Below, piece by piece: positions 1 to 52,863 of a stretch of DNA of 64,000 bases; within the stretch, counting starts at the first letter, position 1; every line of letters starts with the position of its first letter. Made by a program: the position numbers and the translations under genes. Below the pieces are notes generated by a model. The model was not told where the DNA came from, did no database searches, and saw nothing but the letters and a program-made list of their open reading frames with translations. Source of the stretch: Bacillota bacterium (lineage in GTDB: Bacteria; Bacillota; JAAYKD01); contig JAAYKD010000069.1 of NCBI GenBank assembly GCA_012522585.1, forward strand, positions 1,602 through 65,601, given 5' to 3'.

Positions 1-689
1 TTCAGATGATAACGCCTCTTCTAGGCAAATATATCTATCCCGGATCCGAAGGCAAAGAGCTAGCAGTCTTACGCTATGGCACCGTCGTTTCCAATGCCGG
101 CTATTTGGGTAACCCCATGGCTCTGGCTCTTTATGGCAGTCAAGGTCTGCTCTATGCCTCTATATTTTTAATTCCTCAACGAATTGTTGTCTGGTCTCTG
201 GGGGTCTCCTATTTCACCGGCAATAGGGGCAAGAAGATGTTCAAGCAGATCCTCTTTCACCCCTGCATTTTAGCGGTCATTGTCGGCCTTGTTTTGATGC
301 TGGCCCAGATTAAACTCCCCAGTGCTTTGGTCAAGGTTCTGCAACATGGAAGCAATAGTGTCACCCCTATTTCCATGGTCTTGATCGGCAACCTTCTAGC
401 CGATATTTCCTTTAAATCCTTGATCAACAAAACTATCCTCTGGTATACAACTGTTCGCCTCATTTTGATTCCGGCAGCCGTCTTAGCAATTTGTTCTGCT
501 TTGAATTTACCCACCATGGTCACAGTCATCTCAACTCTATTGGTAGCCATGCCAGCCGGAGCGACAACTGCTATTTTAGCAGCCCAACATGATGGCGATG
601 ATGTGCTAGCAGCTAAAATAGTCTTCTTTACTACATTTTTATCCTTGATCACTGTGCCCATCTTCATCTTAATCATGAACAAACTTTAA
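1..689 (+). CDS. AEC (auxin efflux carrier/malate permease) family membrane transporter, C-terminal part (5' end lies upstream of window)
   Basis: Hydrophobic multi-TM translation (..GNPMALALYGSQGLLYASIFLIPQRIVVWSLG.., ..VAMPAGATTAILAAQHDGD..) typical of AEC permeases. The ORF runs to the window edge. Confidence 0.6.
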   Translation, partial: QMITPLLGKYIYPGSEGKELAVLRYGTVVSNAGYLGNPMALALYGSQGLLYASIFLIPQRIVVWSLGVSYFTGNRGKKMFKQILFHPCILAVIVGLVLMLAQIKLPSALVKVLQHGSNSVTPISMVLIGNLLADISFKSLINKTILWYTTVRLILIPAAVLAICSALNLPTMVTVISTLLVAMPAGATTAILAAQHDGDDVLAAKIVFFTTFLSLITVPIFILIMNKL

Positions 690-792
690 TCACGATGGCG
701 ACGATGTGCCAGCAGCTAAGATAGTCTTCTTTACTACCTTCTTATCCTTGATTACTATGCCCATCTTCATCTTAATCATGAACAAGCTTTAG
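588..792 (+). repeat. Two tandem copies (about 100 bp each, about 90% identical) of the 3'-terminal coding segment of the AEC transporter. Copy 2 (691-792) lies immediately after the stop codon and keeps its own stop.
   Basis: Direct comparison of 588-689 with 691-792 (cacgatggcgacgatgtgccagcagctaag...catcttaatcatgaacaagctttag). Confidence 0.85.
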
Positions 793-888
793 AATCAGGG
801 CTTGACAATAAAATGAATTTCGTTATAATGCAAGTGTAAACTTTACACCTAGGGTTTATAGATTAATTAAATACTGGTTGCATGATGA

Positions 889-1078
889 TTTCGAGAGAGT
901 GCGAAAGGCAATAGCTTTTCGACGCCGAAGGGGCCCGCGCGGGAAACTCTCAGGCAAAAGGATCGAAATCGGACGACCACTCCGGAAAGCCAGACTACCA
1001 GATGGATGTCTTGGCACCGAAGAAGCAATCCGCAGAGACCTTTAAACTAAAGGATCTTTTCGGGGAATCTTTCAGGTT
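889..1078 (+). promoter_or_regulatory. Glycine riboswitch. One well-conserved aptamer (about 890-975) plus a degenerate second aptamer (about 985-1075).
   Basis: Aptamer 1 contains GAGAG...GACGCCGAAGGGGC...GAAACTCTCAGGCAAAAGGA, matching the glycine-aptamer core. Aptamer 2 contains GGCACCGAAGAAGCAA...AAACTAAAGGATC. Confidence 0.6.
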
Positions 1079-1082
1079 ATAA

Positions 1083-1126
1083 GACGGAGGCGCACGAAAT
1101 ATCGTAGTGCCTCTGTCTTTTTTTAT
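1083..1126 (+). terminator. Intrinsic terminator serving as the riboswitch expression platform
   Basis: GACGGAGGCGCAC...GTGCCTCTGTC stem followed by TTTTTTT. Confidence 0.6.
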
Positions 1127-1164
1127 GAGCTTTAGCTACGAAATCAAGAAAGAGTGAAGAGAGT

Positions 1165-1302
1165 ATGGAGCACAAAACACCTTTATACGACTGCCATCTT
1201 ACAGCTGGAGCCAAAGCCACACCCTTTAGAGGCTATTTGCTCAAGGTTAAAATAGGAAAAGAAGACTTGATCGGTAACAAGGCACTTCCCCTAAAGAGCT
1301 GA
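1165..1302 (+). pseudogene. gcvT: Remnant of the 5' end of gcvT (aminomethyltransferase): 45 codons, then a stop
   Basis: The translation MEHKTPLYDCHLTAGAKATPFRGY.. matches the GcvT N-terminal motif (K/R-TPLYD-H...GAK...F-G), then diverges and terminates. It is preceded by a GA-rich RBS. Confidence 0.5.
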
Positions 1303-1422
1303 GCCGAAAGTTTTACAAGTTAGGCTAAAAGCGGCAGAGAGAGGCAGAGCTTAAGGATTTTGTGCTTTCTGAATCAAGCCAAAGGAAATAAAAGTTGATT
1401 ATAAAGAAAAGGAGCCAATAAT

Positions 1423-2820: not shown

Positions 2821-2822
2821 AT

Positions 2823-2863
2823 TAAAAGCGCTATCTTCCAATCAAAGATAGCGCTTTTTTACT
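2823..2863 (+). terminator. Rho-independent terminator after lpdA
   Basis: AAAGCGCTATC..GATAGCGCTTTTTT hairpin plus a T-run. Confidence 0.75.
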
Positions 2864-2875
2864 TAGAAACTCTAA

Positions 2876-3005
2876 CAATTGTAATTTCTTACCTTAAATT
2901 TTCCCGACAAAAATTTTCTGTTTAATCCTCTTGGGCTGTTCTTGCAAGGATTTTCTCTTGATCATATTTATCCAAATTGACCCAATAATCGCTGAAAACT
3001 CTAAA
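2876..3005. repeat. Degenerate (about 70% identical) duplicate of the 3' end plus 3' flank of the glycyl-radical enzyme gene (authentic copy about 3006-3135)
   Basis: 2880-2996 aligns with 3010-3130 (..cccgacaaaaattttctgtttaatcctcttgggctgttcttgc..atttatccaaattgacccaataatcgctg.. against ..cccagccaaaaaatcgctgtttattcttcttgagcagttcgagc..atttatccaaattaacgaaataatcgctg..). Confidence 0.7.
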
Positions 3006-3046
3006 TTATCTTTTTCTCTTAATATTCCCAGCCAAAAAATCGCTGT

Positions 3047-5398
3047 TTATTCTTCTTGAGCAGTTCGAGCGATGATCTCCTCTTGATGGTATTTATCCAA
3101 ATTAACGAAATAATCGCTGTAACCGGCTACTCTGACTAAAAGATCTTTATATTCGGCTGGGTTCTGCTGGGCTTTTCTCAGTGTCTCAGTGTCCACCACA
3201 TTGAATTGGATGTGGTGACCGCCTAAACGAAAATAGGTTCTAATCAAGGCAGCCAATTTTTTCAAACCCTGCTCCCCTGCTAGAGTCGAAGGCATGAAGC
3301 GTTGATTGAGCAAGGTGCCTCCGGAGTAACTTTGATCCATTTTAGCCAAGGATTTAATCACTGCTGTGGGACCATTGCGATCAGCGCCGTGAGAAGGTGA
3401 AGTCCCATCTGATTCCGGCAGATGAGCCAAACGACCATTGGCGCTTGCTCCCAGCATTTTGCCAAAATAAACATGACAGGTTGTGGAGAGCATATTCAGA
3501 TGATAGGTGGGCCCTTTAGTGCTATGGCGCCCTTCAATATTATCTAAAAGGGATTGATAGACCCTTTGCATAATTTTATCGGCCCGATCATCATCGTTGC
3601 CATAGAAGGGTGTCTGATTGAGCAATTTTTGTCGCAGCGGCTCATGACCTTGGAAATTATCACTCAAGGCTTGTAGCAATTGCTCCAGCGGGACAGTCTT
3701 TTCATCATAGACATGGGTCTTGATAGCTGAAAGGCTGTCCGTCACCGTTCCTATACCGCAGCATTGAATATAGGTCGTATTATATTTAGGACCTCCGTCG
3801 TAGTAATCTTTGCCACTTTCAATACAGCCTTCGATGACCACGGAGAGGAAAGGAGCCGGAGCATATTTTCTGAACATATGTTCTAAATAGTTGTTGACTC
3901 TGATCTTGGTGTCGACGACGAAACTCAATTGCTTTTGGAAAGCTGCGTAGAGATCATCGAAACTTTCAAAATCTCGGCCCGTGCTCAAGCCGATTTTTTT
4001 ACCGCTCAAGGGGTCAACTCCATCGTTTAAAGTCAATTCCAAAACTTTAGGCACGTTGAGATAGCCGGTCAACAAATAGGCTTCCTTGCCGAAACAGCCT
4101 GTCTCGATACAGCCACTGTTTCCCCCTTCTCTGGCATCCTCAACGCTTTTGCCTGAGCGTACCTGTTCCATGATGACCATATCCGTATTGAAAACGGAAG
4201 GATAACCATAGCCCTTGCGGATAATGGCAGCTGCTTCTAGGAGGAATTTTTCCGGAGTTTTTGCGCTGATCTGAACATTACACTGAGGCTGCAATAAGTG
4301 AAGCTCATCGAAAACTTCCAACAAGAGATATGAGACTTCACTGACTCCATCACTGCCATCTCTTTGCAGGCCACCAATATTGATATTGACGAAATCATTA
4401 TAGGTTCCGCTTTCCAAGGCGGTCACACCGACTTTGGGTGGGGCCGGATGGTTGTTGAATTTTATCCATAAACAGCTCAAGAGCTCCTTAGCTTGATTTC
4501 TGGTCAAGGTGTTGGCAGCCAGTTCTCTAAAATAAAAGGGTGCTAAATGCTGATCTAAATGACCTGGGCTCATAGAATCCCAGCCGTTCAATTCCATGAT
4601 GGTGCCTAAATGGACAAACCAGTACATTTGAAGAGCATCATGAAAACTCTGGGGAGCTTGAGCCGGAATGCGGCGACAGCGCTCAGCTATATCCAACAAT
4701 TCGGCTTTACGCTCAGGGTTATCTTCCTCTTGGGCCAATGCTTGGGCTTTTTCAGCATGTCTTTGACCATAGCGAATCAGTGCCTGAGCGGAAATCATCA
4801 TAGCTTTATATTGCTCATTTTTATTGCCCGCTTCAGGGTCCTTGAGCCAGTCCAATTGGCTTTGCCGTTCTTTTATTTGCTCAATGAAATCGTCCATACC
4901 GTAAAGATAGATTCTACCGTCTAAGGCAGTATGTCCGGGAGCCCTTTGCTCCATAAATTCAGTGAACAAACCTGCTTCGTAGAGGTTCTTCCAAGTATCA
5001 TCGATTTCGGCAAAAGCTTTATCCCGCATACTGCGCCCCCGCCAATAAGGAATCACTTCTTTTTCATAGATCAGCTTATCCTCCGAACTGATCTTGTAGC
5101 CTGCCATCTCCCTCGTATCCAAAACATCTAGATCCTCTAGAGTATGACAAGTCAATTCCGGAAAAGAAGGGACGACTGCGGGAGCATTTCCTCTTTCCCC
5201 TACGATCAATTCCCCTTGACCGATATAGATTTCTTTCTGATCGCAGAAATGATAAAAATTCTTGGCTCGCATGACGGGAACCGAATATTTACCATCATTC
5301 TCTCGATAAAATTCTGTGACCAGCTTGGCCCTTTCCGCACTGAATTTTACAACAGCCTCTCGACTCTCTTGACGCAATCTGGCAACTCGTTCAGTCAT
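3047..5398 (-). CDS. Glycyl-radical enzyme of the PFL2/DhaB-like eliminase family (glycerol dehydratase / HypD / CutC-like). Substrate unassigned.
   Basis: C-terminal glycyl-radical motif RVAGYSDYF. Active-site thiyl-Cys/Glu motif GCIETG. WFVHLGTIMELNGWDSMSPG and FMEQRAPGH blocks resemble C. butyricum glycerol dehydratase. The likely true start is the second ATG (MTERV..), which has AGGAGG 7 nt upstream; the listed ORF begins 6 codons earlier. Confidence 0.85.
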   Translation of the reverse strand: MTERVARLRQESREAVVKFSAERAKLVTEFYRENDGKYSVPVMRAKNFYHFCDQKEIYIGQGELIVGERGNAPAVVPSFPELTCHTLEDLDVLDTREMAGYKISSEDKLIYEKEVIPYWRGRSMRDKAFAEIDDTWKNLYEAGLFTEFMEQRAPGHTALDGRIYLYGMDDFIEQIKERQSQLDWLKDPEAGNKNEQYKAMMISAQALIRYGQRHAEKAQALAQEEDNPERKAELLDIAERCRRIPAQAPQSFHDALQMYWFVHLGTIMELNGWDSMSPGHLDQHLAPFYFRELAANTLTRNQAKELLSCLWIKFNNHPAPPKVGVTALESGTYNDFVNINIGGLQRDGSDGVSEVSYLLLEVFDELHLLQPQCNVQISAKTPEKFLLEAAAIIRKGYGYPSVFNTDMVIMEQVRSGKSVEDAREGGNSGCIETGCFGKEAYLLTGYLNVPKVLELTLNDGVDPLSGKKIGLSTGRDFESFDDLYAAFQKQLSFVVDTKIRVNNYLEHMFRKYAPAPFLSVVIEGCIESGKDYYDGGPKYNTTYIQCCGIGTVTDSLSAIKTHVYDEKTVPLEQLLQALSDNFQGHEPLRQKLLNQTPFYGNDDDRADKIMQRVYQSLLDNIEGRHSTKGPTYHLNMLSTTCHVYFGKMLGASANGRLAHLPESDGTSPSHGADRNGPTAVIKSLAKMDQSYSGGTLLNQRFMPSTLAGEQGLKKLAALIRTYFRLGGHHIQFNVVDTETLRKAQQNPAEYKDLLVRVAGYSDYFVNLDKYHQEEIIARTAQEE

Positions 5399-5412
5399 TT
5401 TATTCCTCCTGA

Positions 5413-6291
5413 TCATTCTATGTTTCTTCGGGCTTCGAGACCACCGGCTCTTAAATAGTCTATGGCTCGGTCCATCTCAGATTCCGTTGGTGTTTCAATA
5501 TGGGGTAATTTATATTCTCGGTTCAATTTTTCATATTTGTTGATCTGCATATGGTGATAGGGCAATAGCTCCAGGGGCCAAGGATTTTCAAACTGCTTAA
5601 AAAAATCGATAATCCTATCGAGATTTTTTTTAGAATCGTTGATTCCCGGTATCAAAGGCATTCGAACAATACCGGCATAACCTGCTCTGATCAAATTGGC
5701 CAAGTTATTTAGAATCAGAGTGTTGTCAACACCTGTATACTTCTCATGTTCTCGGCCAGCCATATGTTTCAAATCGTAGAGAAATAGATCAATATGAGGA
5801 GCCAAGTCTGCTAAGATTGGCCAAGGGCTGTAGCCCGATGTATCCAAAGTTCGATGGATACCCTCCTGGCCTGACAATTTGAGCAACTCCAACAGAAATT
5901 CCGGTTGACTTAAAGGCTCACCACCGGAGAATGTAACTCCGCCACCTGATTCATCATAAAAGAGTCGATCCTTTAAAATGATCTCGTGAACTTCTTGAGC
6001 CCTTTTAGTTTCACCGACCCAAACCCGAGCTTGAGTCAAACAAGCATCAACACAAAGCCCGCAGAGCAAGCAATTTGCACTTTGCTCTAAGCCTTGGGGG
6101 CAAACTTCCAGACAGCGACGACAATCGATACACAGTTCTTCTTGCCAAAGAATCTCTTTAGAAAAACCTTGGCTTTCAGGATTGTGACACCACCAACAAT
6201 TCAAAGGACAGCCTTTGAAAAAAACCGTGGTGCGAATACCCGGACCGTCCTCGATACTGTAGCGCCTAATATTAAAAATGGTACCTTCCAT
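5413..6291 (-). CDS. Glycyl-radical enzyme activating enzyme (radical SAM, with two extra ferredoxin-like Cys clusters)
   Basis: CPLNCWWCHNPE (CX3CX2C) near the N-terminus. CIDCRRCLEVCP and CLLCGLCVDAC clusters. GGEP SAM motif. The stop overlaps the GRE start region. Confidence 0.9.
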   Translation of the reverse strand: MEGTIFNIRRYSIEDGPGIRTTVFFKGCPLNCWWCHNPESQGFSKEILWQEELCIDCRRCLEVCPQGLEQSANCLLCGLCVDACLTQARVWVGETKRAQEVHEIILKDRLFYDESGGGVTFSGGEPLSQPEFLLELLKLSGQEGIHRTLDTSGYSPWPILADLAPHIDLFLYDLKHMAGREHEKYTGVDNTLILNNLANLIRAGYAGIVRMPLIPGINDSKKNLDRIIDFFKQFENPWPLELLPYHHMQINKYEKLNREYKLPHIETPTESEMDRAIDYLRAGGLEARRNIE

Positions 6292-7110: not shown

Positions 7111-8184
7111 CTAGACTTGCTGAATCCAATTGAATTCATCTTTCAGTCTACCCCATTGAATTCCGGTCAATGTATCATAGACTTTTTGAGTTACTTCCCC
7201 TGTTTTGAAATCATTGATGGTCAGAACTTTGCCTTTATAGAAGAGTTCACCGACGGGTGAAACGACTGCAGCAGTTCCCACAGCAAAGATTTCTTCCAAG
7301 GTGCCATTTTCATGAGCTTCGACTAAATCATCGATGGAGATATTGCGTTCACTGACCTTCATGCCCCAATGGCGCATTAGGTGAAGTGCTGAATCGCGGG
7401 TAATACCGGGAAGAATTGTTCCTTCTAGGGGTGGGGTGATGATTTCGCCGTCAATTTTAAAGATGACATTGGTGGTTCCAATTTCTTCTATATATTTGCG
7501 ATGGATTCCATCCAACCACATGACCTGAGAATAGCCTAAAGATCTGGCTTTTTCTTGACCGGCCAAAGAGGCTGCATAGTTACCGCCTGTTTTAGCTTCT
7601 CCAGTTCCACCTTTGATGGCTCTGACGTATTCGTCTTCGACAAAAATCTTGACCGGACTGACTCCTTCAGGATAATAGGAGCCGGAAGGTGAAAGTAAAA
7701 CGATGAAGAGATAGGTGCTGGAGGCTGAAACGCCAACAGAAGGCTGAGTAGCTATACACATGGGCCTGATGTAAAGAGAAGCATCTTTAGCTTGGGGGAC
7801 CCAGTCCTGATCGACTTCGACAATTGCTTTGACAGCCTGAACAAAATCGTCAACCGGTATTTCGGGCATGGAGACTCTTCTATTACTCCGCTGCATGCGA
7901 GCGCCATTGGCTTCGGGTCTGAACAATTGAACCTTTCCATCGTCACGGCGGTAGGCTTTCATGCCTTCAAAGGTTTCTTGAGCATAGTGCAAAACCATTG
8001 CTGCCGGATCCATGGAGATGGGCCCATAAGGAACGATTCTGGGATCATGCCAGCCTGTTCCTCTGGTGTAGTTCATGACGAACATGTGATCGGTAAAATG
8101 TCTGCCAAATCCTAAATTAGCCTCATCGGGGCGTGGTTTAGGATTTTCGGTTAGGGTAATTTTAATATCCAACAAAAAGATCAT
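7111..8184 (-). CDS. ilvE: Branched-chain amino acid aminotransferase
   Basis: N-terminus ..ENPKPRPDEANLGFGRHFTDHMF.. and overall class-IV aminotransferase pattern. 357 aa. Confidence 0.9.
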   Translation of the reverse strand: MIFLLDIKITLTENPKPRPDEANLGFGRHFTDHMFVMNYTRGTGWHDPRIVPYGPISMDPAAMVLHYAQETFEGMKAYRRDDGKVQLFRPEANGARMQRSNRRVSMPEIPVDDFVQAVKAIVEVDQDWVPQAKDASLYIRPMCIATQPSVGVSASSTYLFIVLLSPSGSYYPEGVSPVKIFVEDEYVRAIKGGTGEAKTGGNYAASLAGQEKARSLGYSQVMWLDGIHRKYIEEIGTTNVIFKIDGEIITPPLEGTILPGITRDSALHLMRHWGMKVSERNISIDDLVEAHENGTLEEIFAVGTAAVVSPVGELFYKGKVLTINDFKTGEVTQKVYDTLTGIQWGRLKDEFNWIQQV

Positions 8185-11994: not shown

Positions 11995-12537
11995 ATGAAT
12001 ACTCAGAAGATGTTGCGTTTAAGCCTGGCTTTGAGTTTAGGCCTAAGCTTGCATGTGATTGAAAGGATGCTGCCTTTACCGGCTCTGCCTTTCCCCGGAG
12101 TCAAACTAGGCTTAGCCAATCTGATCAGTTTAGGTGCAATCTTTTGGTTTTCCTATAAGGAAAGCCTTACCTTGATTATTTTGCGCTGTGTCTTAGCTTC
12201 CTTTTTTGGAGGTGGTTTTTCCGCTTTTCTCTACTCGTTGAGCGGCGCCTTTTTCAGCTTCAATCTGATCTGGTTTCTTTCTCATCTCTCTCCTGCCAAT
12301 TTCAGCCTACCAATGATCAGCATGGTCGGGGCAATTGTCCATAATTTCAGCCAAATCATGGTCTCCATCTTTTTAATGGAAACCTTAGGGCTCTTGATCT
12401 ATCTGCCAATTCTGATCATAGCCGGTTCGATCAGCGGCTTAGCCATCGGCCTGACCGGTCTTATCTTAATTCGCAATTTACACAAGAGCGGACTCTTGCC
12501 CCAAATTGAAGAAAGATTACTACCCTTGTTAAGTTAA
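11995..12537 (+). CDS. Gx-transporter family membrane protein (former heptaprenyl diphosphate synthase component I, PF07456)
   Basis: 5-TM hydrophobic protein. N-terminus LSLALSLGLSLHVIERMLPLP.. is typical of the family. Frequently found adjacent to apbE. Confidence 0.6.
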   Translation: MNTQKMLRLSLALSLGLSLHVIERMLPLPALPFPGVKLGLANLISLGAIFWFSYKESLTLIILRCVLASFFGGGFSAFLYSLSGAFFSFNLIWFLSHLSPANFSLPMISMVGAIVHNFSQIMVSIFLMETLGLLIYLPILIIAGSISGLAIGLTGLILIRNLHKSGLLPQIEERLLPLLS

Positions 12538-12920
12538 TGCCAATTCTGATCATAGCCGGTTCGATCAGCGGCTTAGCCATCGGCCCGAGCAGTCTTATCC
12601 TAATTCGCAATTTACATAAGAGCGGACTCTTGCCCCAAATTGAAGAGAGATTACTACCCTTGTTAAGTTAATGCCAATTCTGATCATAGCCGGTTCGATC
12701 AGCGGTTTAGCCATCGGCCTGACCAGACTTATCTTAATTCGCAATTTACATACGAGCGGACTCTTACCCCAAATTGAAGAAAGATTACTACCCTTGTTAA
12801 GTTAATGCCAATTCTGATCATAGCCGGTTCGATCAGCGGTTTAGCCATCGGCCTGACCAGTCTTATCTTAATTCGCAATTTACATACGAGCGGACTCTTA
12901 CCCCAAATTGAAGAGAAAGT
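12405..12920 (+). repeat. Four tandem copies of a 134-bp unit (the last one truncated). Copy 1 is the last 44 codons plus stop of the Gx-transporter gene. Copies 2-4 lie downstream, each retaining the TAA.
   Basis: Unit gccaattctgatcatagccggttcgatcagcgg...cccttgttaagttaat begins at 12405, 12539, 12673 and 12807. A few substitutions distinguish the copies. Confidence 0.9.
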
Positions 12921-13000
12921 AAAACTAGTTTAAAATTAAAAAAAGCCTAAGGTCAAAGAACTCTCATTTTTCCTGAGAAGCTTCTGACCTTAGGCTCTTC

Positions 13001-36340: not shown

Positions 36341-36765
36341 GGCAGGTTCACCAGGTCCAGTAACGGCCATTGCTTTGGCAGATGGTTCCCCTTTGAGCTG
36401 CCCTAGTCAAAACTAGGCTATGGTCAGCAGGTTCGCCAAGTCTAGTAACGGCCATTGCTTTGGCAGATGATTCCCCTTTGAGCTGCCCTAGTCAAAGCTA
36501 GGCTATGGTCAGCAAGTTCGCCAAGTCCAGTAGCGACCGTTGCTTTGGCAAATGATTCCCCTTTGAGCTGCCCCAGTCAAAGCTAGGCCATGGTCAACAG
36601 GTTCGCCAAGTCCAGTAACGGCCATTGCTTTGGCAGATGATACCTCCTTTGAGCTGCCCTAGTCAAAACTAGGCTACGGTAAACAGGTTCGCCAAGTCCA
36701 GTAACGGCCATTGCTTTGGCAGATGATACCTCCTTGGGCAGCCGTAGTCAAAACTATGCTATTGT
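36341..36765. repeat. About five tandem copies of an approximately 85-bp unit. The last copy supplies the final roughly 20 codons and stop of comEC.
   Basis: Unit ggtcagcaggttcgccaagtccagtaacggccattgctttggcagatgattcccctttgagctgccctagtcaaagctaggctat recurs at about 36343, 36428, 36513, 36598 and 36684 with point differences. Each unit contains the small hairpin CTAGTCAAAACTAG. Confidence 0.9.
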
Positions 36766-39022
36766 GCCTTTTTAAAATTTCCAATGTGGAATCGGCCGGA
36801 TGATTATATCGGTTGTTAACAGCGACGGAGATGATGGAGATCTCCGGTGTAATTTTACCGAGAAATTCAGGGCTGCAAGAACTGGCTCCCCCGTGATGGG
36901 AAACTTTAAAGAGGGTTTGGGCTTCTATAGCTCTGATTTTTGGCAAAAGGGCGAATTCCCCTTCCCTTTCCAGATCTCCAGCAAGCCACAAATCCGTTCC
37001 TTGATAGACTAGATGGATAACTAAAGAGTCATCATTGCCTCCATCTTTAAAAACCTGAGATTGCACTACTTCGATGCTAACATCCTTGTCTAAAACTATT
37101 TGATCCCCTTCAAACAAGAGGATCTTTTGGCTTTCCGGCTGTTGGCTCAGCCAATCGGTCAATTCTGCAGGTAAATTCGTTAAATCTGCCAGGCCGTGTA
37201 AAAACTTTTTGTAAGGAAGTTTATCTCCCACTTGAATTAAGCCTTGAAAATGGTCTGAGTGGCCATGACTCAATAACAGAACATCCAGACTATTCAATCC
37301 CAATCTTTTCAAATAGGGAAGCACCGTCTTCTTTCCAATTTCACTGCTGCCAGTACCCGAGCCTCCTCCATCCACTAGGATGGTTTTTCCATTGGGCAAA
37401 CGCAAAAAAATACAATCACCTTGGCCAACATCGATCATATGAACTTCCAATTTATAGGGCCAAGGATGCCAACAGAGCAGGGCTAAAATGAGAAGGAAAG
37501 ACAGAGCTGTTTTTTTAACCAGGCTTTTATACTTAGGTAAAATCCCTGAGCTCAGGAAAAACAAGAAGATATAGGCCAAGTAGACGACTGACAAGCTGGG
37601 TTTGGGTAAATATAATGAAGACATAGGCAAGGAAGCAAAGAGACTTCCCGTTTTGATCAACAGCCAAGCATAGGCTTCGGCCAATCCGTAGAGCCAAAAG
37701 AACAAAGAGCTAAAAGGGATGCTCAACCATAATAAAAGCAATAAAGGCATGGCGGGAATGATCAAAGGAGTAAAAACTAAATTGCTCAAAGGAGCGATTA
37801 AAGACACTTCCTGAAAATAATAGAGACTTAGTGGAAGGACACCGATTTGAGCTGCCAGAGTGGCAGCCATAGGAAAGATCAAAAAATCAGCTAACTTCAA
37901 TCGCTTTTTTAAAGCTGTGGAAATAGGTCTGGTGAAAACAAAAAGACCCCAGACTGCACATAAGGAAAGGAGAAAACCCGTTTCAAAGAGTAAATTAGGC
38001 CAAAGCGGCAGGAGAATCAAAAGCATCAAGGCTAATATTGTAGACCAATGGGTTCGCCTCAAGATTATTTTAGCTGAGAAAACGATGATGGCCATGATTC
38101 CGGCTCGAACAACCGAAGGTTCCAATTCTGTCAAGAGCATAAAAAACATTATTAAGGCCAGATAGAGAAAATATTCCGACTTTCTACTTAAAAGAAGTCT
38201 GTTTAAAAACAAGCCCAACCCCACAATGAAAAAAGCGACATTGCCCCCGGAGACTGCCAGAAGATGCAGAAGACCTGCCTTTTGAAAATTTTCAATTAAG
38301 TCTTCGGCCAAATCATCTGCCACCCCAAATGACAAGCTCATCAAAAGAGAAGCGGTCTCCTCTTGCAGCTTAGGGTTTCCATCTTGCCCCTTAGAGTAAA
38401 GAGCCATGTAGAGATTTCTTCTCAATTTCCAGATAGATGCTAGAGGGTCGGTCAAGGTTGGCCCTCCCAAGGTTTTTCCCTCCTGAGCAAAAAAGCGAGC
38501 CACAATATTCTTTCTTTTCTGAATTAAATCCCAATTGGGATCTCCGAAATTTACTCTGCCCCCCTGCAGTCCCAAGCTACCCTTAAGCCAGATAAAGGTG
38601 CCTGGAGGATATAGTTGATCTTCCTTGTTCTCCAGATAGACATCGACTTTACCACCCTGAGAGTGCCAAGAATTTTCCTTTAAAATAGAAAACTCCTCTA
38701 ACTGAAAGCGCCATCTGTTTTGATTGTCCTTAAAAGGAAAGCCGCTGACCCGTCCTTGAATTTCTATTGTTTGATCCGTAGGGATTGAATCCAACCTTTT
38801 CGCTTTTTTAAATTCATGGAGGGAATAAATGGAATAGCCTAAAATCATGAAAACTAAGAAAATTGCTACTGTCTTTCTATCTCTATAGAGAGCCAAGATA
38901 ATTAAGAGAAAAGATAGAACTATCAAAAAAGGCAAATAGGAGAAACCGTATCTTTGCTCTCCTAAAGCAATTCCCAAAGCCATAGCCGCAGCTGCGACTA
39001 TGGGCTTTTTAATTCTTTTCAT
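36674..39022 (-). CDS. comEC: DNA internalisation competence protein ComEC/Rec2 (with C-terminal metallo-beta-lactamase domain)
   Basis: Multi-TM competence domain. MBL motif HGHSDH. 782 aa. The C-terminal tail is encoded inside the tandem repeat. Confidence 0.92.
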   Translation of the reverse strand: MKRIKKPIVAAAAMALGIALGEQRYGFSYLPFLIVLSFLLIILALYRDRKTVAIFLVFMILGYSIYSLHEFKKAKRLDSIPTDQTIEIQGRVSGFPFKDNQNRWRFQLEEFSILKENSWHSQGGKVDVYLENKEDQLYPPGTFIWLKGSLGLQGGRVNFGDPNWDLIQKRKNIVARFFAQEGKTLGGPTLTDPLASIWKLRRNLYMALYSKGQDGNPKLQEETASLLMSLSFGVADDLAEDLIENFQKAGLLHLLAVSGGNVAFFIVGLGLFLNRLLLSRKSEYFLYLALIMFFMLLTELEPSVVRAGIMAIIVFSAKIILRRTHWSTILALMLLILLPLWPNLLFETGFLLSLCAVWGLFVFTRPISTALKKRLKLADFLIFPMAATLAAQIGVLPLSLYYFQEVSLIAPLSNLVFTPLIIPAMPLLLLLWLSIPFSSLFFWLYGLAEAYAWLLIKTGSLFASLPMSSLYLPKPSLSVVYLAYIFLFFLSSGILPKYKSLVKKTALSFLLILALLCWHPWPYKLEVHMIDVGQGDCIFLRLPNGKTILVDGGGSGTGSSEIGKKTVLPYLKRLGLNSLDVLLLSHGHSDHFQGLIQVGDKLPYKKFLHGLADLTNLPAELTDWLSQQPESQKILLFEGDQIVLDKDVSIEVVQSQVFKDGGNDDSLVIHLVYQGTDLWLAGDLEREGEFALLPKIRAIEAQTLFKVSHHGGASSCSPEFLGKITPEISIISVAVNNRYNHPADSTLEILKRHNSIVLTTAAQGGIICQSNGRYWTWRTCLP

Positions 39023-42270: not shown

Positions 42271-43149
42271 ATGGCAAAAATTGCATGGATTGGAACCGGC
42301 GTCATGGGAGCTTCCATGGCAGGTCATTTGAGCCAAGAAGGCCATGAACTTTTTTTATTCAACCGCACCCACACCAAAGCTGTTAAGGTAGCGGAACAAA
42401 TCAAAGCTAAGGCCTTTGACACAATAGCCGAAACTGTCAAGGATGCAGATTTCATCTTCACCATTGTCGGTTACCCTCATGATGTGGAAGAAGTGATGCT
42501 GAAACCTCAAGGTGTTTTCGATTCAGCCAAAAAAGGGTCCTTGATCATCGATATGACCACCTCATTGCCTTCCCTAGCGGTAAAACTCTACCAAATCGGT
42601 CAAGAAAGAGGTTTGAAACTCTTGGACGCACCTGTTTCAGGGGGCGATTCAGGAGCCCGCAACGGGACACTATCCATCATGGTAGGAGGAGATCAAGAAG
42701 ATTTCAAAACTGCCCTGCCTCTTTTTGAAGCGATGGGCCAAAACATAGTTCACATGGGAGTGGCTGGCAATGGTCAACATACTAAAGCCGCCAACCAAAT
42801 TGCCGTCGCCGGAGCAACTGCTGCCATGACAGAAGCAATCGTTTACTCTAAAAAAGTTGGTTTGGAGCCGGAAGCTATGCTCAAGGCTATTGGAGCCGGA
42901 GCGGCAGGCAGCTGGCAATTACAGAATATGGCTCCCAGAGTCCTGCAAAAGGATTTTGACCCTGGCTTTTTCGTCAAACACTTCATCAAGGATATGAAAA
43001 TTGTCAATGAGGAAATGGAAGAGCGAGATACTCATTTAGAAATGCTCAATACTGTTTTGAATCTCTATCTGAAGATGGCTGAAGCCGGTTTCGAAGACGA
43101 CGGTACTCAAGCCTTGATTAAGCTCTACGAAGAACAATCGAGCTGCTAA
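42271..43149 (+). CDS. 3-hydroxyisobutyrate dehydrogenase / 2-hydroxy-3-oxopropionate reductase family NAD(P)-dependent oxidoreductase
   Basis: Rossmann motif WIGTGVMGASMAGHL. HIBADH-family catalytic Lys region. Confidence 0.8.
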   Translation: MAKIAWIGTGVMGASMAGHLSQEGHELFLFNRTHTKAVKVAEQIKAKAFDTIAETVKDADFIFTIVGYPHDVEEVMLKPQGVFDSAKKGSLIIDMTTSLPSLAVKLYQIGQERGLKLLDAPVSGGDSGARNGTLSIMVGGDQEDFKTALPLFEAMGQNIVHMGVAGNGQHTKAANQIAVAGATAAMTEAIVYSKKVGLEPEAMLKAIGAGAAGSWQLQNMAPRVLQKDFDPGFFVKHFIKDMKIVNEEMEERDTHLEMLNTVLNLYLKMAEAGFEDDGTQALIKLYEEQSSC

Positions 43150-43303
43150 ACTTAAAGATAAACCTGTGTGTTAGCAATTACTCTTTGTTGATGCTCTAGG
43201 AAGAACAGTCGAAACTGCTAAACATATAGTTAAATCTTTATATGTAGGCAATCATACCCTTTGTTGATCTTCAACAGAAATCAGTAAATTAACTTTCAAA
43301 CCT

Positions 43304-43348
43304 AAAAAGGCTGTAGCAAAAATTTGCTACAGCCTTTTTGTTTTTTTA
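43304..43348. terminator. Bidirectional intrinsic terminator
   Basis: AAAAAGGCTGTAGCAAAAATTTGCTACAGCCTTTTTGTTTTTTT. Confidence 0.8.
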
Positions 43349-48118: not shown

Positions 48119-49294
48119 ATGCAGTATCAAGGTTTAGTCATCTCTGTACCTAAGGAGATTATGCCTGGTGAAAAACGTGTTGCAGCGACACCGGAAACAG
48201 TCAAAAAACTCGTGTCCCAAGGAGCCACCCTATTAGTAGAAGAAAGTGCAGGTTTAGGTTCTTATTTTTCTGATGCAGAATATGTGGAAGCCGGTGCTAC
48301 TATTGTCGGTGATGTAGAAGAATTATTCTCCAAAGCCAATATCATATTCAAAGTAAAAGAGCCTCAATTCAACCATCAGGTAGGAAAACATGAAGTGGAT
48401 CTGATGAAAGCGGAGCAAGTTCTGATAACCTTCTTACATCCAGCAGCTCCTGCCAACCACGAAATGATTCAAAATTTGACGGCTAAAGGTGTAACGGCTT
48501 TGACTTTAGATGGAATACCTCGTATTTCCAGAGCCCAAGCTATGGACGCTTTGACTTCCATGAGCACTGTTGCCGGCTATAAATCAGTCTTGATGGCAGC
48601 TAACCGAGTACCAAAATTCCTGCCCATGATCGGCACTGCCATCGGTATGATGCCACCGGCCAATGTAACTGTCTTAGGAGCAGGAGTTGCCGGTTTACAG
48701 GCTATCGCCACAGCTAAACGCTTAGGCGCCGTGGTCTATGCTGCAGATATCCGACCGGAAGCTGCCGAGCATGCTAAGAGCCTAGGAGCAAGAATCGTGG
48801 AAACTGGTGTTCCGGCCGAAATTGCTATCGGTGAAGGTGGCTATGCCAAAGCCCTGCCCCAAGAATGGATTGTCAAAGAGCAAACTGCTCTCTACGATAC
48901 CATCATCAATTCAGATATCGTCATAGCAACTGCTTTAGTTCCCGGAAGAATGGCTCCCACCTTAATTACCGAAGAGATGGTCAAAGCCATGAAACCCGGC
49001 TCAGCCATCGTCGACGTTTCCATTGACCAAGGAGGCAACTGTGCTCTGACAGTGGGCGGCGAATTAATCGAACGCCACGGCATCAGCATCGACGGAACTA
49101 AGAATATTCCCGGTATGGTAGCCACCAGTGCAACCAGTATGTTCTCTAAAAATATAGTCAACTTTGTTGCCAATATCGTCAAAGACGGAAAGATTATCAT
49201 CGACACAAACGATGAAATTACCGATTCTACCCTGGTCTGTCAAAATGGAAAACTGGTTCACGCCGGTACCCGTGAGGCTTTAGGCCTTAATTAA
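48119..49294 (+). CDS. pntAA: NAD(P) transhydrogenase subunit alpha part 1 (dI, NAD(H)-binding)
   Basis: Alanine-dehydrogenase-like dI fold with GAGVAGLQA Rossmann motif and the N-terminal PKEIMPGEKRVAATPE signature. Confidence 0.92.
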   Translation: MQYQGLVISVPKEIMPGEKRVAATPETVKKLVSQGATLLVEESAGLGSYFSDAEYVEAGATIVGDVEELFSKANIIFKVKEPQFNHQVGKHEVDLMKAEQVLITFLHPAAPANHEMIQNLTAKGVTALTLDGIPRISRAQAMDALTSMSTVAGYKSVLMAANRVPKFLPMIGTAIGMMPPANVTVLGAGVAGLQAIATAKRLGAVVYAADIRPEAAEHAKSLGARIVETGVPAEIAIGEGGYAKALPQEWIVKEQTALYDTIINSDIVIATALVPGRMAPTLITEEMVKAMKPGSAIVDVSIDQGGNCALTVGGELIERHGISIDGTKNIPGMVATSATSMFSKNIVNFVANIVKDGKIIIDTNDEITDSTLVCQNGKLVHAGTREALGLN

Positions 49295-49593: not shown

Positions 49594-49607
49594 GAGGGCT
49601 TATCTAG

Positions 49608-52600
49608 ATGGAACCGATTTATATCATTATCTCTATCGTTTTAGCAGCTCTCGTTCTTCTCGGCATCAAACTCATGAGTTCTCCCAAAACAGCCGTCCAA
49701 GGTAATTTAATCAGCGCCTTCAGTATGTTGGCGGCAGTAATTTTGGTGCTTTGGACTAACAATATTTTAAGTCTCCCTCTATTGTGGGCAGCAATAGCCA
49801 TCGGAAGTATAATCGGCTATGTTCTGGGTATGAAAGTCACCATGATTCAAATGCCTCAGGTTGTTGCTCTTTTAAACGGATTGGGAGGCGGAGCTTCCCT
49901 TTTAGTTGCAGCAGCTGAAATTCTCAGCAACTTTAATCAAATGGACGCTTTTAGTAAAGTGAGCGGTCAATTGGCTTTAATCGTCGGTGGTATCACCCTC
50001 TCAGGCAGCATGATTGCAGCAGCCAAGTTGGACAGAAGGATGAGTCAACGTCCCGTAGTCCTCAAAGGCCACAATATTTTAGCCAACGGTAGTTTGGTCA
50101 TCATGATTGTTGCCACTTTTCTCACCTTATTGGACAATTCACCTTATATTTTCTTATCCTTCCTGATTTTAATACTATCCCTAGCCTATGGTTATCTTTT
50201 CTCTGTCCGAGTAGGCGGAGCTGATATGCCTATCACCATCAGTTTGTTAAACTCCTTTTCCGGATTAGCAGGAGCAATAGTTGGTTTTACCATAGGTGAG
50301 CCACTTTTGGTTGCAGTCGGTGCCATTGTCGGAGCCTCGGGTCTGATTTTGACTCAAATCATGTGTAAAGCCATGAATCGCTCCTTAGGCAGTGTCTTAA
50401 GCGGAGGCACCTCCAAACCGAGTAGCAAACCCAAGGTCGTGCCTGCGAAAGTGGAAGAGCCCGTTTTAACAGAGCCCATAAAAGAAGAAGTTGCTAAAAG
50501 TTTAGGGGATTTATTAAAAGAAGCCCAACGAGTCATCATCATACCAGGCTATGGCATGGCCTTGGCTCAGGCTCAAAATGAAGTAAAAGCCCTGACCGAT
50601 GCACTCATCGCCCAGGGTAAACAGGTAGAATTCGCTATACACCCCGTAGCCGGACGGATGCCCGGACATATGAATGTCCTTTTAGCAGAGGTTGATGTTC
50701 CCTACGAATTGATGCGAGAGATGGACGATATCAATCCTCTCTTTGCCGAAACGGATGTAGCCATCGTGGTTGGATCTTGTGACGTTGTCAATCCAGCCGC
50801 CAACACAGCCGAAGATACCCCCATCTACGGAATGCCTGTTCTTTCCGTAGAAAACGCCAAACATGTAATCGTTTGCAATTTAGATACAAACCCTGGCTAT
50901 TCTGGCGTAGACAATCCTCTCTATGAGATGGAACATGTCAGACTCCTTTTGGGAGATGCCAAAGCAACTCTCAAGCAATTACTGGCTGAATTTAAAGAGG
51001 AAAAGAAATCTGAGCCCCAGGAGATCGAAGAAGAAAAAACTCCAAGCTCTCCTTCCTATTTAGAACTATTGCACCAAGGAGAAAAAGTTATCTTCGTTCC
51101 CGGATACGGTATGGCCTTAGCCCAAGCCCAATCATTGGTCAAACAGTTGGCTGATGCTTTGGAAGAAAAAGGCAAAGAGGTCAAATTTGCCATCCACCCT
51201 GTAGCCGGACGAATGCCCGGTCACATGAATGTGCTCTTAGCAGAAACGGATGTGCCTTACGATAAACTTTGGGAAATGGACGATATCAATCCTCTCTTCC
51301 CGGAAACCGATATAGTCATCATCGTTGGTGCCAATGACGTAGTCAACCCGGCAGCCAACACTGCAGAAGACACACCCATCTACGGTATGCCCGTCTTATC
51401 AGTTGAAAATGCCAAACATGTAATTGTCTGTAACTTAGATAAAAGCCCTGGCTATTCCGGCGTAGATAATCCTTTATACGAAATGGATAATGTGACTCTG
51501 CTTTTAGGCGACGCTAAAGAGAGCCTGACTCAACTGATCGACCAGTTTAAACAAGGACCTATAGCCAAAGAGCCGGAGCCTCTAGCTCAAGGAACAGACA
51601 CTCTAACCACTGTTCTGGCTAAACCTGAAAGAGTCATCATCGTGCCTGGATATGGCATGGCTTTAGCCCAAGCTCAAACCCAGGTCAAGGAGATTTATGA
51701 AACCTTGGAGGCCAAGGGAACAGAAGTGGAATTTGCCATTCACCCAGTGGCAGGACGGATGCCCGGACATATGAATGTGCTCTTAGCAGAAGTCGATATT
51801 CCTTATGAAAAATTGAGAGAAATGGATGATATCAACCCTCTCTTCCCGGAAACAGATCTGGTCATCATTGTGGGCGCCAATGACGTAGTCAACCCGGCAG
51901 CCAACACAGCTGAGGACACACCCATTTACGGCATGCCCATTCTCAATGTAGATCAAGCTAAGCATATTGTGGTTTGCAATTTGGATCAAAGCCCAGGTTA
52001 TTCCGGTGTGGATAACCCCCTATACGAGATGGACAATGTCACTCTTTTGTTGGGCGATGCCAAGGACAGCCTGAATAAAATACTGGATATCTTCAAGGCA
52101 GAACCCTCAGCAGCCCCAGAAGCAGAACCAACTTCAGTAGCTCAAACTTCAGTCTTAGCCGCAGCTAAAAAGGTCATCATCGTACCAGGCTATGGCATGG
52201 CTTTAGCTCAGGCTCAAACTCTAGTCAAAAGTGTTTACGATGCCCTAGAAGCCAAGGGTGCAGAGGTGGAATTCGCCATCCACCCGGTGGCAGGACGCAT
52301 GCACGGCCACATGAACGTTCTCTTAGCAGAAGTCGATGTTCCTTACGAAAAACTGAGAGAGATGGACGATATCAACCCTCTCTTCCCGGAAACCGACGTG
52401 GTCATCGTAGTGGGCGCCAATGACGTAGTCAACCCGGCGGCCAATACAGCCGAGGACACACCTATTTATGGGATGCCCATCTTAAATGTAGACCAAGCCA
52501 AACACATCATAGTCTGCAACTTGGATAGGAGCCCAGGTTATTCCGGCGTAGACAACCCCCTATACGATATGGAGAATGTGACTTTGCTTCTAGGTGATGC

Positions 52601-52640
52601 CAAAGCATCTTTAGAAATCCTTCTCGAAGAATTGAAATAA
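49608..52640 (+). CDS. pntB: NAD(P) transhydrogenase subunit beta carrying four tandem dIII (NADP(H)-binding) domains (1010 aa)
   Basis: Residues 1 to about 290 form the multi-TM dII domain. They are followed by four repeats of about 180 aa, each with PGYGMALAQAQ, AIHPVAGRMPGHMNVLLAE, GANDVVNPAANTAEDTPIYGMP and NPLYEM. Confidence 0.9.
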   Translation: MEPIYIIISIVLAALVLLGIKLMSSPKTAVQGNLISAFSMLAAVILVLWTNNILSLPLLWAAIAIGSIIGYVLGMKVTMIQMPQVVALLNGLGGGASLLVAAAEILSNFNQMDAFSKVSGQLALIVGGITLSGSMIAAAKLDRRMSQRPVVLKGHNILANGSLVIMIVATFLTLLDNSPYIFLSFLILILSLAYGYLFSVRVGGADMPITISLLNSFSGLAGAIVGFTIGEPLLVAVGAIVGASGLILTQIMCKAMNRSLGSVLSGGTSKPSSKPKVVPAKVEEPVLTEPIKEEVAKSLGDLLKEAQRVIIIPGYGMALAQAQNEVKALTDALIAQGKQVEFAIHPVAGRMPGHMNVLLAEVDVPYELMREMDDINPLFAETDVAIVVGSCDVVNPAANTAEDTPIYGMPVLSVENAKHVIVCNLDTNPGYSGVDNPLYEMEHVRLLLGDAKATLKQLLAEFKEEKKSEPQEIEEEKTPSSPSYLELLHQGEKVIFVPGYGMALAQAQSLVKQLADALEEKGKEVKFAIHPVAGRMPGHMNVLLAETDVPYDKLWEMDDINPLFPETDIVIIVGANDVVNPAANTAEDTPIYGMPVLSVENAKHVIVCNLDKSPGYSGVDNPLYEMDNVTLLLGDAKESLTQLIDQFKQGPIAKEPEPLAQGTDTLTTVLAKPERVIIVPGYGMALAQAQTQVKEIYETLEAKGTEVEFAIHPVAGRMPGHMNVLLAEVDIPYEKLREMDDINPLFPETDLVIIVGANDVVNPAANTAEDTPIYGMPILNVDQAKHIVVCNLDQSPGYSGVDNPLYEMDNVTLLLGDAKDSLNKILDIFKAEPSAAPEAEPTSVAQTSVLAAAKKVIIVPGYGMALAQAQTLVKSVYDALEAKGAEVEFAIHPVAGRMHGHMNVLLAEVDVPYEKLREMDDINPLFPETDVVIVVGANDVVNPAANTAEDTPIYGMPILNVDQAKHIIVCNLDRSPGYSGVDNPLYDMENVTLLLGDAKASLEILLEELK
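50526..52640 (+). repeat. Intragenic tandem repeat: four units of about 540-560 bp (starts about 50526, 51084, 51630, 52170), each encoding one dIII domain
   Basis: Self-alignment of the pntB sequence. Copies differ mainly at third-codon positions. Confidence 0.9.
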
Positions 52641-52660
52641 AATCCTTATTCAATAAATTA

Positions 52661-52703
52661 AAAAAGCAGCCTCAGATTTTCGTCTGAAGCTGCTTTTTAT
52701 TTT
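52661..52703 (+). terminator. Intrinsic terminator after pntB
   Basis: AAAAAGCAGCCTCAGATTTTCGTCTGAAGCTGCTTTTTATTTT. Confidence 0.85.
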
Positions 52704-52755
52704 ATTATTTGCACTTAGGACTTTTAAGGAACACTATGGGCTGCCTAGTTCACTG

Positions 52756-52863
52756 ATAAAAAAGTAATCATCGTACCAGGATACAACATGGCTTTAACAT
52801 AAGTTCAAATATTGATCAAAGAAGCTTCTAACCTGGAAGCTGAACAAGCTAATAAAATCTAAG
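52756..52863 (+). pseudogene. Decayed remnant of the start of a fifth dIII repeat (..KVIIVPGYNMALT*..), downstream of the pntB terminator
   Basis: aaaaagtaatcatcgtaccaggatacaacatggctttaac... aligns to repeat-unit starts (aaaaaggtcatcatcgtaccaggctatggcatggctttagc...) with many substitutions and a stop. Confidence 0.7.

Follow-up and report, generated by a model that had tools for sequence, protein, structure and literature searches.

In a stretch of 64,000 nucleotides from an uncultured Bacillota bacterium of anaerobic digesters (GenBank assembly GCA_012522585.1, contig JAAYKD010000069.1, positions 1,602 to 65,601; the whole stretch is called the window below), the 3′ ends of several protein-coding genes are repeated in tandem beyond the gene to which they belong. 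The arrays are lineage-specific and polymorphic, because strains of the species differ in copy number and relatives at about 70% nucleotide identity have none, and they are similar in kind to loci in which the count of tandem repeats varies (VNTRs). We consider the chances somewhat better than even, at a probability of roughly 0.55, that they are young to middle-aged, strain-variable, VNTR-like minisatellites without a function of their own, which would have been seeded when a polymerase stalled and switched backwards on its template. Their appearance is that of innocuous side-products of DNA copying and not of the work of a system directed at gene ends, and nothing indicates that a dedicated system lies behind them. 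The sequence of this species that was covered amounts to about 80 kb, and our scans are therefore to be read at the scale of the window and not as genome-wide.

Tandem copies of gene 3′ ends

The window was scanned for repeats with TRF and by blastn against itself, and the genes were named by hmmscan against Pfam. Both repeat searches recovered tandem copies at all four loci that an earlier note on this DNA had listed: 588-791 (2 × 103 bp, 91% identity), at the end of a Mem_trans/AEC transporter gene (6..689, plus strand), the complete form of which is present in assembly L087; 2867-3122 (2 × 129 bp, 75% identity), at the end of the gene for a PFL-like glycyl-radical enzyme (3047..5416, minus strand); 12404-12914 (3.8 × 134 bp, 95-96% identity), at the end of a Hpre_diP_synt_I/Gx gene (11995..12537, plus strand); and 36342-36765 (4.9 × 85 bp, 85-91% identity), at the end of comEC (36674..39022, minus strand). 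In all four arrays the first unit is the true 3′ end of the open reading frame (ORF) and the remaining units lie past its stop codon. Adjoining copies are separated by 0-4 nt, and the unit lengths of 103, 134 and 85 bp are not divisible by three.

Some details of the earlier description had to be revised. The glycyl-radical enzyme gene does have two diverged copies, as the note said, but they include about 51 nt of 3′ flank and not 35 bp, and they occupy 2867-3122 instead of 2876-3135. The four 134-bp copies reported for the Gx gene are an array of 3.8 units, the tail of the last copy being decayed. The comEC array is real as well, but its unit does not include the original stop codon as had been thought: a junction within the last sense codon makes a new TAG, and the end of the protein stays TCLP*.

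Two further arrays were found. One, decayed, lies in the window at 43105-43303 and is also present in contig L089 of another strain; its unit takes in the final ∼45 nt of gene 42271..43149, the stop codon and ∼35 nt of flank, and the array stops at a terminator stem. The other belongs to a sister strain and lies just past the right end of the window (contig L095, 9712-10035; ∼2.6 × 125 bp, 75-78% identity). There the unit consists of the last 15 nt and the stop codon of the final gene of an mrp-type operon (multi-subunit cation/proton antiporter), followed by ∼110 nt of flank, and the array stops at a bidirectional terminator (10036-10079). The periods of these two arrays (73-76 and 125 bp) were derived from alignment; the L095 array, being diverged, and its hairpin with a long loop escaped TRF and the terminator scan, and both were recovered by blastn and alignment. 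The content of the units spans a wide range, from nearly all coding (Gx) to nearly all intergenic (the mrp-operon locus).

If the internal repeats of pntB are included, local head-to-tail arrays are the only non-trivial direct repeats of the 64 kb detected by TRF and self-blastn. Comparison of the window with itself revealed no dispersed repeats or insertion sequences, and no matches between units of different arrays. With head-to-tail units longer than ∼10 bp, the arrays fall within the usual definition of VNTRs and minisatellites.

Enrichment at gene 3′ ends

In a shuffle-calibrated scan of the 56 ORFs, copies of the last 150 nt were sought within 700 nt downstream of the gene, and copies of the first 150 nt within 700 nt upstream of it. 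The four known arrays reached z = 24-87 and a fifth match, at gene 42271..43149, z = 6.7; for 5′ ends, the same scan of the window gave no upstream copy in 55 genes (top z = 3.3). The recurrence of 3′ ends that the earlier note had described is real, and the bias towards them holds at the scale of the window, with a downstream copy in 5 of 56 genes against an upstream 5′-end copy in none of 55 (one-sided P = 0.03).

As controls we used 80 unrelated loci (1.29 Mb, 1,142 ORFs), re-using the other loci obtained in a search of genome contigs with the glycyl-radical enzyme as query, and submitted them to the same scan. They contain about four true tandem arrays with 78-123 bp units, which are intergenic or in-frame. 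Among the 1,142 control ORFs there was no 3′-end array, and the only matches of the scan were adjacent paralogues and a hairpin like those of repetitive extragenic palindromic (REP) elements. The difference between 5 of 56 and 0 of 1,142 is highly significant (Fisher P = 2×10−7), as is that between the five arrays seen in 64 kb and the 0.2 expected from the control density (P ∼2×10−6); these enrichment tests are post hoc, the window having been picked for this pattern, and their margins are large.

In the same scan, the 3′ end of an aminotransferase gene (7111..8184, minus strand) weakly resembled (z = 5.0) a segment ∼450 nt downstream (∼6560-6620), within the neighbouring gene, which is probably due to chance.

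Copy number varies between strains

Independent assemblies from other runs or projects (L001, L002, L003, L087, L088, L092 and L093) are 99.5-100% identical to the window and have the same copy numbers. A strain at ∼98% identity (ENA ERZ4239849; contigs L089 and L090) has one copy each at comEC and Gx, the window having 341 and 391 extra bp precisely at these two arrays. A further strain (Logan SRR24100346; contig L094) has three AEC units against two in the window: its last unit is orthologous to unit 2 of the window, and its middle unit is a recent copy of its own unit 1. The same strain has no duplicate at the glycyl-radical enzyme gene, and neither have the relatives L004, L084 and L085. 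Copy number at Gx (4 versus 1), comEC (5 versus 1) and AEC (2 versus 3) is accordingly strain-variable, in the manner that defines VNTRs.

The comparison with related genomes that the earlier note had called for points the same way. Relatives at ∼70% nucleotide identity with conserved gene order (L004, which is identical to L084, and L085) have no direct repeats in ∼60 kb. A metagenome search with the M14 peptidase as query gave three loci only, at ∼70% identity, and the search of genome contigs with the glycyl-radical enzyme gave mostly horizontally transferred copies in Desulfobacterota and Synergistota, gene order being conserved in L004 only. ComEC homologues are at most 46% identical, and therefore provide no closer outgroup.

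Between the AEC and glycyl-radical enzyme genes there is, in addition, a presence/absence polymorphism (window 796-2866 versus L094 1435-1494). In the window this interval is a cassette with a promoter, a tandem glycine riboswitch (882-1097, matching Rfam RF00504 twice) and the dihydrolipoyl dehydrogenase gene lpd (1423-2820) with its terminator. In L094, a 60-nt bidirectional terminator stands alone in its place, so that AEC array, terminator and glycyl-radical enzyme stop codon adjoin directly in that order. The points at which the two alleles part coincide exactly with the end of the AEC array on one side and with the stop codon of the glycyl-radical enzyme gene on the other.

Most arrays end at terminators

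Measured from the stop codon, the distal breakpoints of the units lie at -1 (comEC), 0/+1 (Gx), +3 (AEC), ∼+35 (43105 array), +51 (glycyl-radical enzyme) and ∼+110 nt (mrp-operon array). Because they range from -1 to ∼+110 nt, the stop codon is not the landmark. Taken by themselves, the three tight cases could suggest targeting of stop codons (P ∼0.003 under a uniform model), but they are outweighed by the three cases in which the breakpoint follows the terminator. The idea of a targeted process, raised in the earlier note, is not borne out, be the target gene 3′ ends or stop codons as such: the unit slides with respect to the stop codon and stays anchored at the terminator.

At five of the six loci, no more than 12 nt separate the end of the array from a strong terminator stem. 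The distance is 12 nt for Gx (in the L090 allele), 7 nt for AEC (in the L094 flank), 8 nt for the glycyl-radical enzyme and 0-3 nt for the 43105 array, and the mrp-operon array reaches the inverted repeat that starts at 10036. At none of the loci is a hairpin included in a unit (P ∼0.002), and at the three loci with a long spacer the array abuts the stem (P ∼0.001). The folded hairpins at Gx, AEC and the glycyl-radical enzyme have energies of -15.8 to -20.1 kcal/mol (z about -6). The mrp-operon terminator, read from the sequence and found by blastn as an inverted repeat, has an 11-bp stem, a long loop and a T run. In the single-copy strain the Gx hairpin begins 12 nt after the stop codon. The positions of array units and hairpins are collected in Table 1.

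Table 1. Array units, terminator hairpins and pntB-derived fragment, in coordinates of the window
Feature	Position	Strand	Description
AEC array, unit 1	588..690	+	Functional 3′ end: 34 codons, stop 687-689, ∼3 nt more
AEC array, unit 2	691..795	+	Untranslated copy; own stop TAG 790-792; orthologous to third copy of L094
Terminator hairpin, lpd/glycyl-radical enzyme	2826..2860	.	Bidirectional; DNA fold -15.8 kcal/mol, z = -6.0; distal anchor of the array
Glycyl-radical enzyme array, unit 2	2867..2997	-	∼75% identical copy of coding end and flank; 8 nt from terminator stem
Glycyl-radical enzyme array, unit 1	2996..3124	-	Last 25 codons, stop (3047-3049) and 51 nt of 3′ flank
Gx array, unit 1	12404..12537	+	Functional 3′ end; stop 12535-12537; ancestral tail ...ERLLPLLS*
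Gx array, units 2-4	12538..12928	+	Untranslated; 391 bp, all missing in strain L090
Terminator hairpin past Gx array	12944..12996	.	Fold in L090 -17.8 kcal/mol, z = -5.9; in the window -15.4, z = -3.95
comEC array, units 1-4	36341..36680	-	Untranslated; all 341 bp missing in strain L089
comEC array, unit 0	36681..36765	-	Functional 3′ end; ORF stop 36674-36676 is the junction-made TAG
Fifth, decayed array	43105..43303	+	∼2.6 × 73-76 bp; gene 42271..43149
Terminator hairpin bounding fifth array	43303..43340	.	17-pair stem
Decayed dIII-start fragment	52757..52860	+	Start of a dIII unit (∼35 codons); 79% identity to fourth copy

Wherever the progenitor is readable, the junctions show a microhomology of 0-2 nt. 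With the single-copy alleles of L090 and L089 taken as progenitors, the arms are 1 nt at Gx and 2 nt at comEC; they are 2 nt at AEC and 1-2 nt at the glycyl-radical enzyme, and the old, diverged arrays may have lost the signal.

As to orientation, 38 of the 56 genes are on the minus strand and GC skew is negative over the whole window, which makes the plus strand the lagging strand. Four of the six arrays are on plus-strand genes, where lagging-strand synthesis runs from the gene towards the hairpin. Among the seven convergent-gene junctions of the window, three have an array (four if AEC is counted as it stands in L094) and a fifth has the pntB fragment.

The first copy is kept and the others decay

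The first copy keeps the ancestral C-terminus. The tail of the first Gx copy is the same in the single-copy strain and is similar to that of the L004 orthologue (...KRLLPLLD...), and the end of ComEC in the window (...TCLP*) has its counterpart in the ...TCRP* of homologues. The downstream copies, for their part, bear signs of decay: unit 1 of comEC is frameshifted, units 3 and 4 carry nonsense codons, and the last Gx unit has a tail in which 23 nt are replaced by 12. The variable sites of the Gx units are distributed 2/3/4 by codon position, and five of the nine are non-synonymous.

The comEC array allows its history to be followed further. Units 1-4 have about eight derived changes in common, as compared with unit 0 and with the L089 allele, so one pseudo-copy had diverged, by about 10%, before it was amplified. 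Pseudo-unit 2 agrees with the functional L089 allele at four variants (GGT CGC ... ACT TGC), the functional unit of the window having the alternative states, as do units 3 and 4; this suggests gene conversion or exchange between translated and untranslated units. Between pseudo-lineage and functional sequence, 14 of 75 sites differ, against 1.5% between the two strains overall, and the array is therefore probably older than the strain split. The single-copy comEC allele would then be either the product of a precise collapse or one side of a long-standing polymorphism. The view that events of different ages are present, already expressed in the earlier note, is upheld.

Public gene calls have entered the untranslated Gx copies as ORFs of 42-44 amino acids (L001 3874-4136), and they also have a 45-amino-acid ORF ∼470 nt past the AEC array, in the lpd leader (L087 7375-7512). 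Such small-protein database entries of 42-45 amino acids are probably spurious, which calls for caution in annotation.

How the arrays may have arisen

Polymerases are known to pause at hairpins. In the scenario that we favour, which is also in keeping with the indels attributed to replication-transcription conflicts (PMC7451550), a polymerase would stall at the foot of an intrinsic-terminator hairpin, or on entering the 3′ end of a transcription unit; the nascent end would re-pair 70-135 nt upstream on 0-2 nt of homology and the stretch would be copied again. The product would be a tandem duplication with its distal end at the hairpin foot and its proximal end usually within the last 15-134 nt of the gene, which is the anatomy from which this step is deduced. 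Unequal recombination or slippage, together with gene conversion, afterwards expands, contracts and homogenises the array, as the pattern of shared variants and the polymorphism between strains show. The intact first copies show a third step, in which purifying selection lets only those events persist that spare the C-terminus and the stop codon of the first copy, while the downstream copies, untranslated, decay. The propensity itself is confined to this species-level lineage of digester Bacillota. Among the candidate causes named by the earlier note, slippage at terminator hairpins gives the best fit, given how close five of the six array ends are to a stem and that the hairpin is never included.

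Several observations weigh against this scenario. The hairpin statistics are post hoc and come from six loci only, and it is from the anatomy of the arrays that we infer stalling and template switching. The distal breakpoint of the comEC array has no significant hairpin (z = 0.8) and lies at a stop codon inside an operon. The AEC array is flanked by a promoter in the window and by a terminator only in L094, and either flank may be the ancestral one. A strand bias, which the earlier note had suggested looking for, is not significant (P = 0.08-0.3), and the glycyl-radical enzyme array is on the side where a leading-strand stall would be needed. The assembly that provides the single-copy alleles has a coverage of 3.5×, at which a collapse to a single copy by the assembler is possible in principle. 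Finally, the differences between functional and downstream copy are distributed 1/1/8 by codon position at AEC (P = 0.013) and 4/1/10 at the glycyl-radical enzyme (P = 0.026), both under a neutral model, and at these two loci stop codons have been neither lost nor gained.

This third-position bias, to which six of the seven AEC differences common to both strains conform, is absent at Gx and comEC. Translation of the downstream copies as its cause is unsupported, given the decay at the other loci. The simplest reading may be that homologous recombination replaced the functional end by a diverged allele and left the older copy behind, since the locus is a recombination mosaic: L094 and the window are 97.2% identical in the AEC gene and 99.4% in the glycyl-radical enzyme gene.

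A different explanation is that duplications of ∼100 bp arise all along the chromosome at a uniform rate, unusually high in this lineage and free of positional bias, and that selection acts as the only filter: those within genes, at 5′ ends or in regulatory spacers would be removed, and those at 3′ ends would survive when they extend into the neutral DNA between convergent genes. It has the merit of accounting for the intact first copy found in every case and for the location of the arrays other than comEC at convergent-gene junctions, which are promoter-free, and microhomology-mediated duplications are indeed depleted from essential genes (PMC8639346). Duplications of the observed lengths were placed uniformly on a reconstructed single-copy gene map. 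In such a simulation, 78-82% of the events are within coding sequence and could be purged, as the explanation supposes, 4-5% span a 3′ end alone, 4-5.5% a 5′ end alone and 5-6.5% are wholly intergenic. However, even with all the internal events removed, placements spanning the 3′ end alone make up 23% of the remainder, and five out of five at 3′ ends has a probability of 7×10−4. Wholly intergenic placements should have been as frequent as those spanning 3′ ends, yet none was found. Selection of this kind also leaves unexplained why there are no events at 5′ ends, why terminators are excluded from the units and why arrays abut the stem, as duplication of a terminator should be harmless. We hold it to be unlikely, without being far-fetched, as a full account.

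Another possibility is that breaks at convergent-gene junctions are repaired by fill-in of staggered ends followed by microhomology-free end joining, the breaks being due either to topological stress with gyrase cleavage or to head-on collisions where the fork enters the 3′ end of a gene. The 0-2 nt of microhomology are typical of end joining and atypical of slippage between direct repeats (PMC8639346; bioRxiv 10.64898/2026.02.28.708716), five of the six arrays are at convergent-gene junctions (AEC only as in L094) with the pntB fragment at another, and four of the six, together with the pntB fragment, are on head-on (plus-strand) genes, indels near collision sites being a known signature of conflicts (PMC7451550). 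But the strand bias does not reach significance, comEC is co-directional with replication and inside an operon, and the model alone does not predict array ends that coincide exactly with the foot of the hairpin on the side of the gene. For these reasons we regard break repair as quite unlikely to be the cause.

That the arrays were selected for a function, as a spacer between ribosome and terminator, as a structured 3′ untranslated region or as a reservoir of alternative C-terminal cassettes, is in our opinion highly improbable. At Gx and AEC, admittedly, stop codon and hairpin were ancestrally no more than 10-12 nt apart, and the downstream copies of AEC and the glycyl-radical enzyme keep open frames, with differences biased to third positions. 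But strains that are 98% identical live without the Gx and comEC arrays; downstream copies degenerate by nonsense, frameshift and deletion changes; spacers of 40-115 nt are already in place at the glycyl-radical enzyme, 43105 and mrp-operon loci; there are no Rfam matches in the arrays; and the copies differ little from one another, with no segment in which the differences cluster.

Two kinds of element are known to leave a gene 3′ end duplicated further downstream, namely integrative elements and diversity-generating retroelements (DGRs). We nevertheless give hardly any credence to the idea that the arrays are footprints of such elements, be they attL/attR duplicates, DGR template/variable pairs or members of a dispersed family like the mycobacterial interspersed repetitive units (MIRUs). 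With copies 0-4 nt apart, there is no element between them, and no integrase, transposase or reverse transcriptase is found among the Pfam-annotated genes of L001, L002, L087, L089, L090, L091 and L095, a set that accounts for most of the window; duplication of att sites can be discarded on these grounds. A DGR is likewise discarded, as the RVT family is missing from the same gene lists and as substitutions are mostly T/C and A/G transitions (9 of the 10 AEC differences), not adenine-specific changes. The dissimilarity of units from different loci in the window self-comparison disposes of a MIRU- or REP-like family. Just as negligible is an assembly artefact, in which strain haplotypes would have been joined in tandem or k-mers would have overlapped: all the sources are short-read metagenome assemblies and contig L003 breaks within the Gx array, but the same structures come from three assembly projects (megahit, JGI, Logan/SPAdes), the copy numbers agree in five independent, near-identical contigs, the copies are 4-25% different, with indels and with decay particular to single units, and the three-copy AEC allele has its own pattern of variants.

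pntB and other variable segments

The earlier note had seen in pntB an in-frame variant of the same phenomenon. The duplication of the dIII domain is real, as pntB (49608..52640, 1010 amino acids) has four in-frame dIII domains at 72-75% nucleotide identity, matched by hmmscan as four PNTB stretches, but it does not belong to the same process. PntB proteins with 3, 4 or 5 tandem C-terminal dIII domains (∼830, 1010 and 1190 amino acids) form a conserved group, to which the protein of the window belongs, and because they are widespread, in Bacillota, Bacteroidota, Desulfovibrio and Alkalicella, the multi-dIII form is an old, selected architecture that stands outside the process generating the arrays. 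Such proteins are annotated plainly as PntB, and the stoichiometry and function of multi-dIII transhydrogenases merit a separate look. The fragment at 52757-52860 lies past the pntB stop codon and a first terminator, between two terminators, and is not a copy of a gene end; it may be what is left of a fifth dIII unit, or of a duplication of 591 bp that has since been deleted.

In the neighbouring pntA gene, 85 bp (48870-48954; near position 166 of L089) are missing from the ERZ4239849 strain, where the gene is consequently broken into two ORFs; the cause is either a deletion that shifts the frame or a fault of the 3.5× assembly. Elsewhere, L090 lacks 300 bp (18549-18848) of the spacer that separates the urocanase gene from the serine dehydratase gene, the two being convergent. 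The spacer holds weak internal direct repeats (e.g. TATCCGACTAACTAT.../TATCAGACTCACTAT...), and the segment may be another old intergenic duplication at a convergent-gene junction.

Significance and comparison with known systems

Tandem duplication is the first step towards minisatellites and repeated protein domains, and the sites and causes of its origin in bacteria are poorly known. The species studied here offers independent events of different ages, with single- and multi-copy alleles still segregating, and they point to a common positional rule, namely that arrays end at the foot of a terminator with almost no microhomology. Going beyond the individual loci, one may tentatively propose that the lineage has a terminator-anchored, near-microhomology-free duplication process, perhaps triggered by stalling at hairpins or by 3′-end collisions, which seeds minisatellites at most convergent-gene junctions; we find this conceivable but on the whole doubtful. 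If true, it would be a natural, still-active system showing the birth of minisatellites, and it would show by what route gene 3′ ends acquire the raw material from which C-terminal extensions or added domains can be made. Should the rule hold genome-wide, it would also provide a testable link between terminator hairpins, or replication-transcription encounters at 3′ ends, and structural mutation, as well as strain-typing markers for an uncultured digester organism. Both the recurrence of the arrays and their positional rule deserve to be tested across the genome.

Full-text searches of the literature turned up no account of arrays that are seeded in a systematic way in the interval from gene 3′ end to terminator. 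The closest relatives are bacterial VNTRs and minisatellites, and the prokaryotic long-unit ‘satellites’ of Subirana and Messeguer (PMC6749651), which, like the 70-135 bp head-to-tail units described here, are unique to each locus and variable between strains; a few species carry many such arrays and most carry almost none. What sets the present arrays apart from these satellites is that they are seeded between the 3′ end of a gene and its terminator, from the last codons of the gene itself, and neither of two tandem-repeat surveys (PMC6749651; bioRxiv 10.64898/2026.02.28.708716) mentions stop codons or terminators. Microhomology-mediated tandem duplications (MTDs) are alike in that a single-copy segment gives rise to a tandem duplicate that can expand or revert, with gene-disrupting events filtered by selection (PMC8639346; bioRxiv 10.64898/2026.02.28.708716). 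However, MTDs are defined by microhomology arms of ∼3-4 bp or more (same references), whereas the arms found here are 0-2 nt, which is below that definition at Gx and comEC, the loci with progenitor alleles, older junctions possibly having lost the signal; nor is a bias towards terminators part of the description of MTDs.

Head-on replication-transcription conflicts in Bacillus subtilis produce indels beside collision sites in transcribed genes (Sankar et al. 2016, reviewed in PMC7451550). Most of the arrays likewise belong to head-on genes and lie at the end that the fork reaches first, but the B. subtilis indels are loss-of-function changes inside reporters, whereas here we are dealing with fixed arrays past stop codons and with an orientation bias that is not significant.

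Two other systems deserve mention. The MIRUs of Mycobacterium are intercistronic tandem units of 50-100 bp that overlap stop codons, vary between strains and make up a dispersed family. The likeness lies in tandem units at gene boundaries and in strain variability; unlike a dispersed family, each array described here copies the end of its own gene and has no similarity to the others. In E. coli, slippage stimulated by hairpins and palindromes has been studied by the laboratories of Sinden, Lovett, Ehrlich and Leach: the template hairpin pauses the polymerase and the nascent strand misaligns, with a preference for the lagging strand. The classical outcome is a deletion between direct repeats that flank the hairpin, whereas the backward switch proposed here would duplicate 70-135 nt upstream of the hairpin and leave the hairpin itself in single copy.

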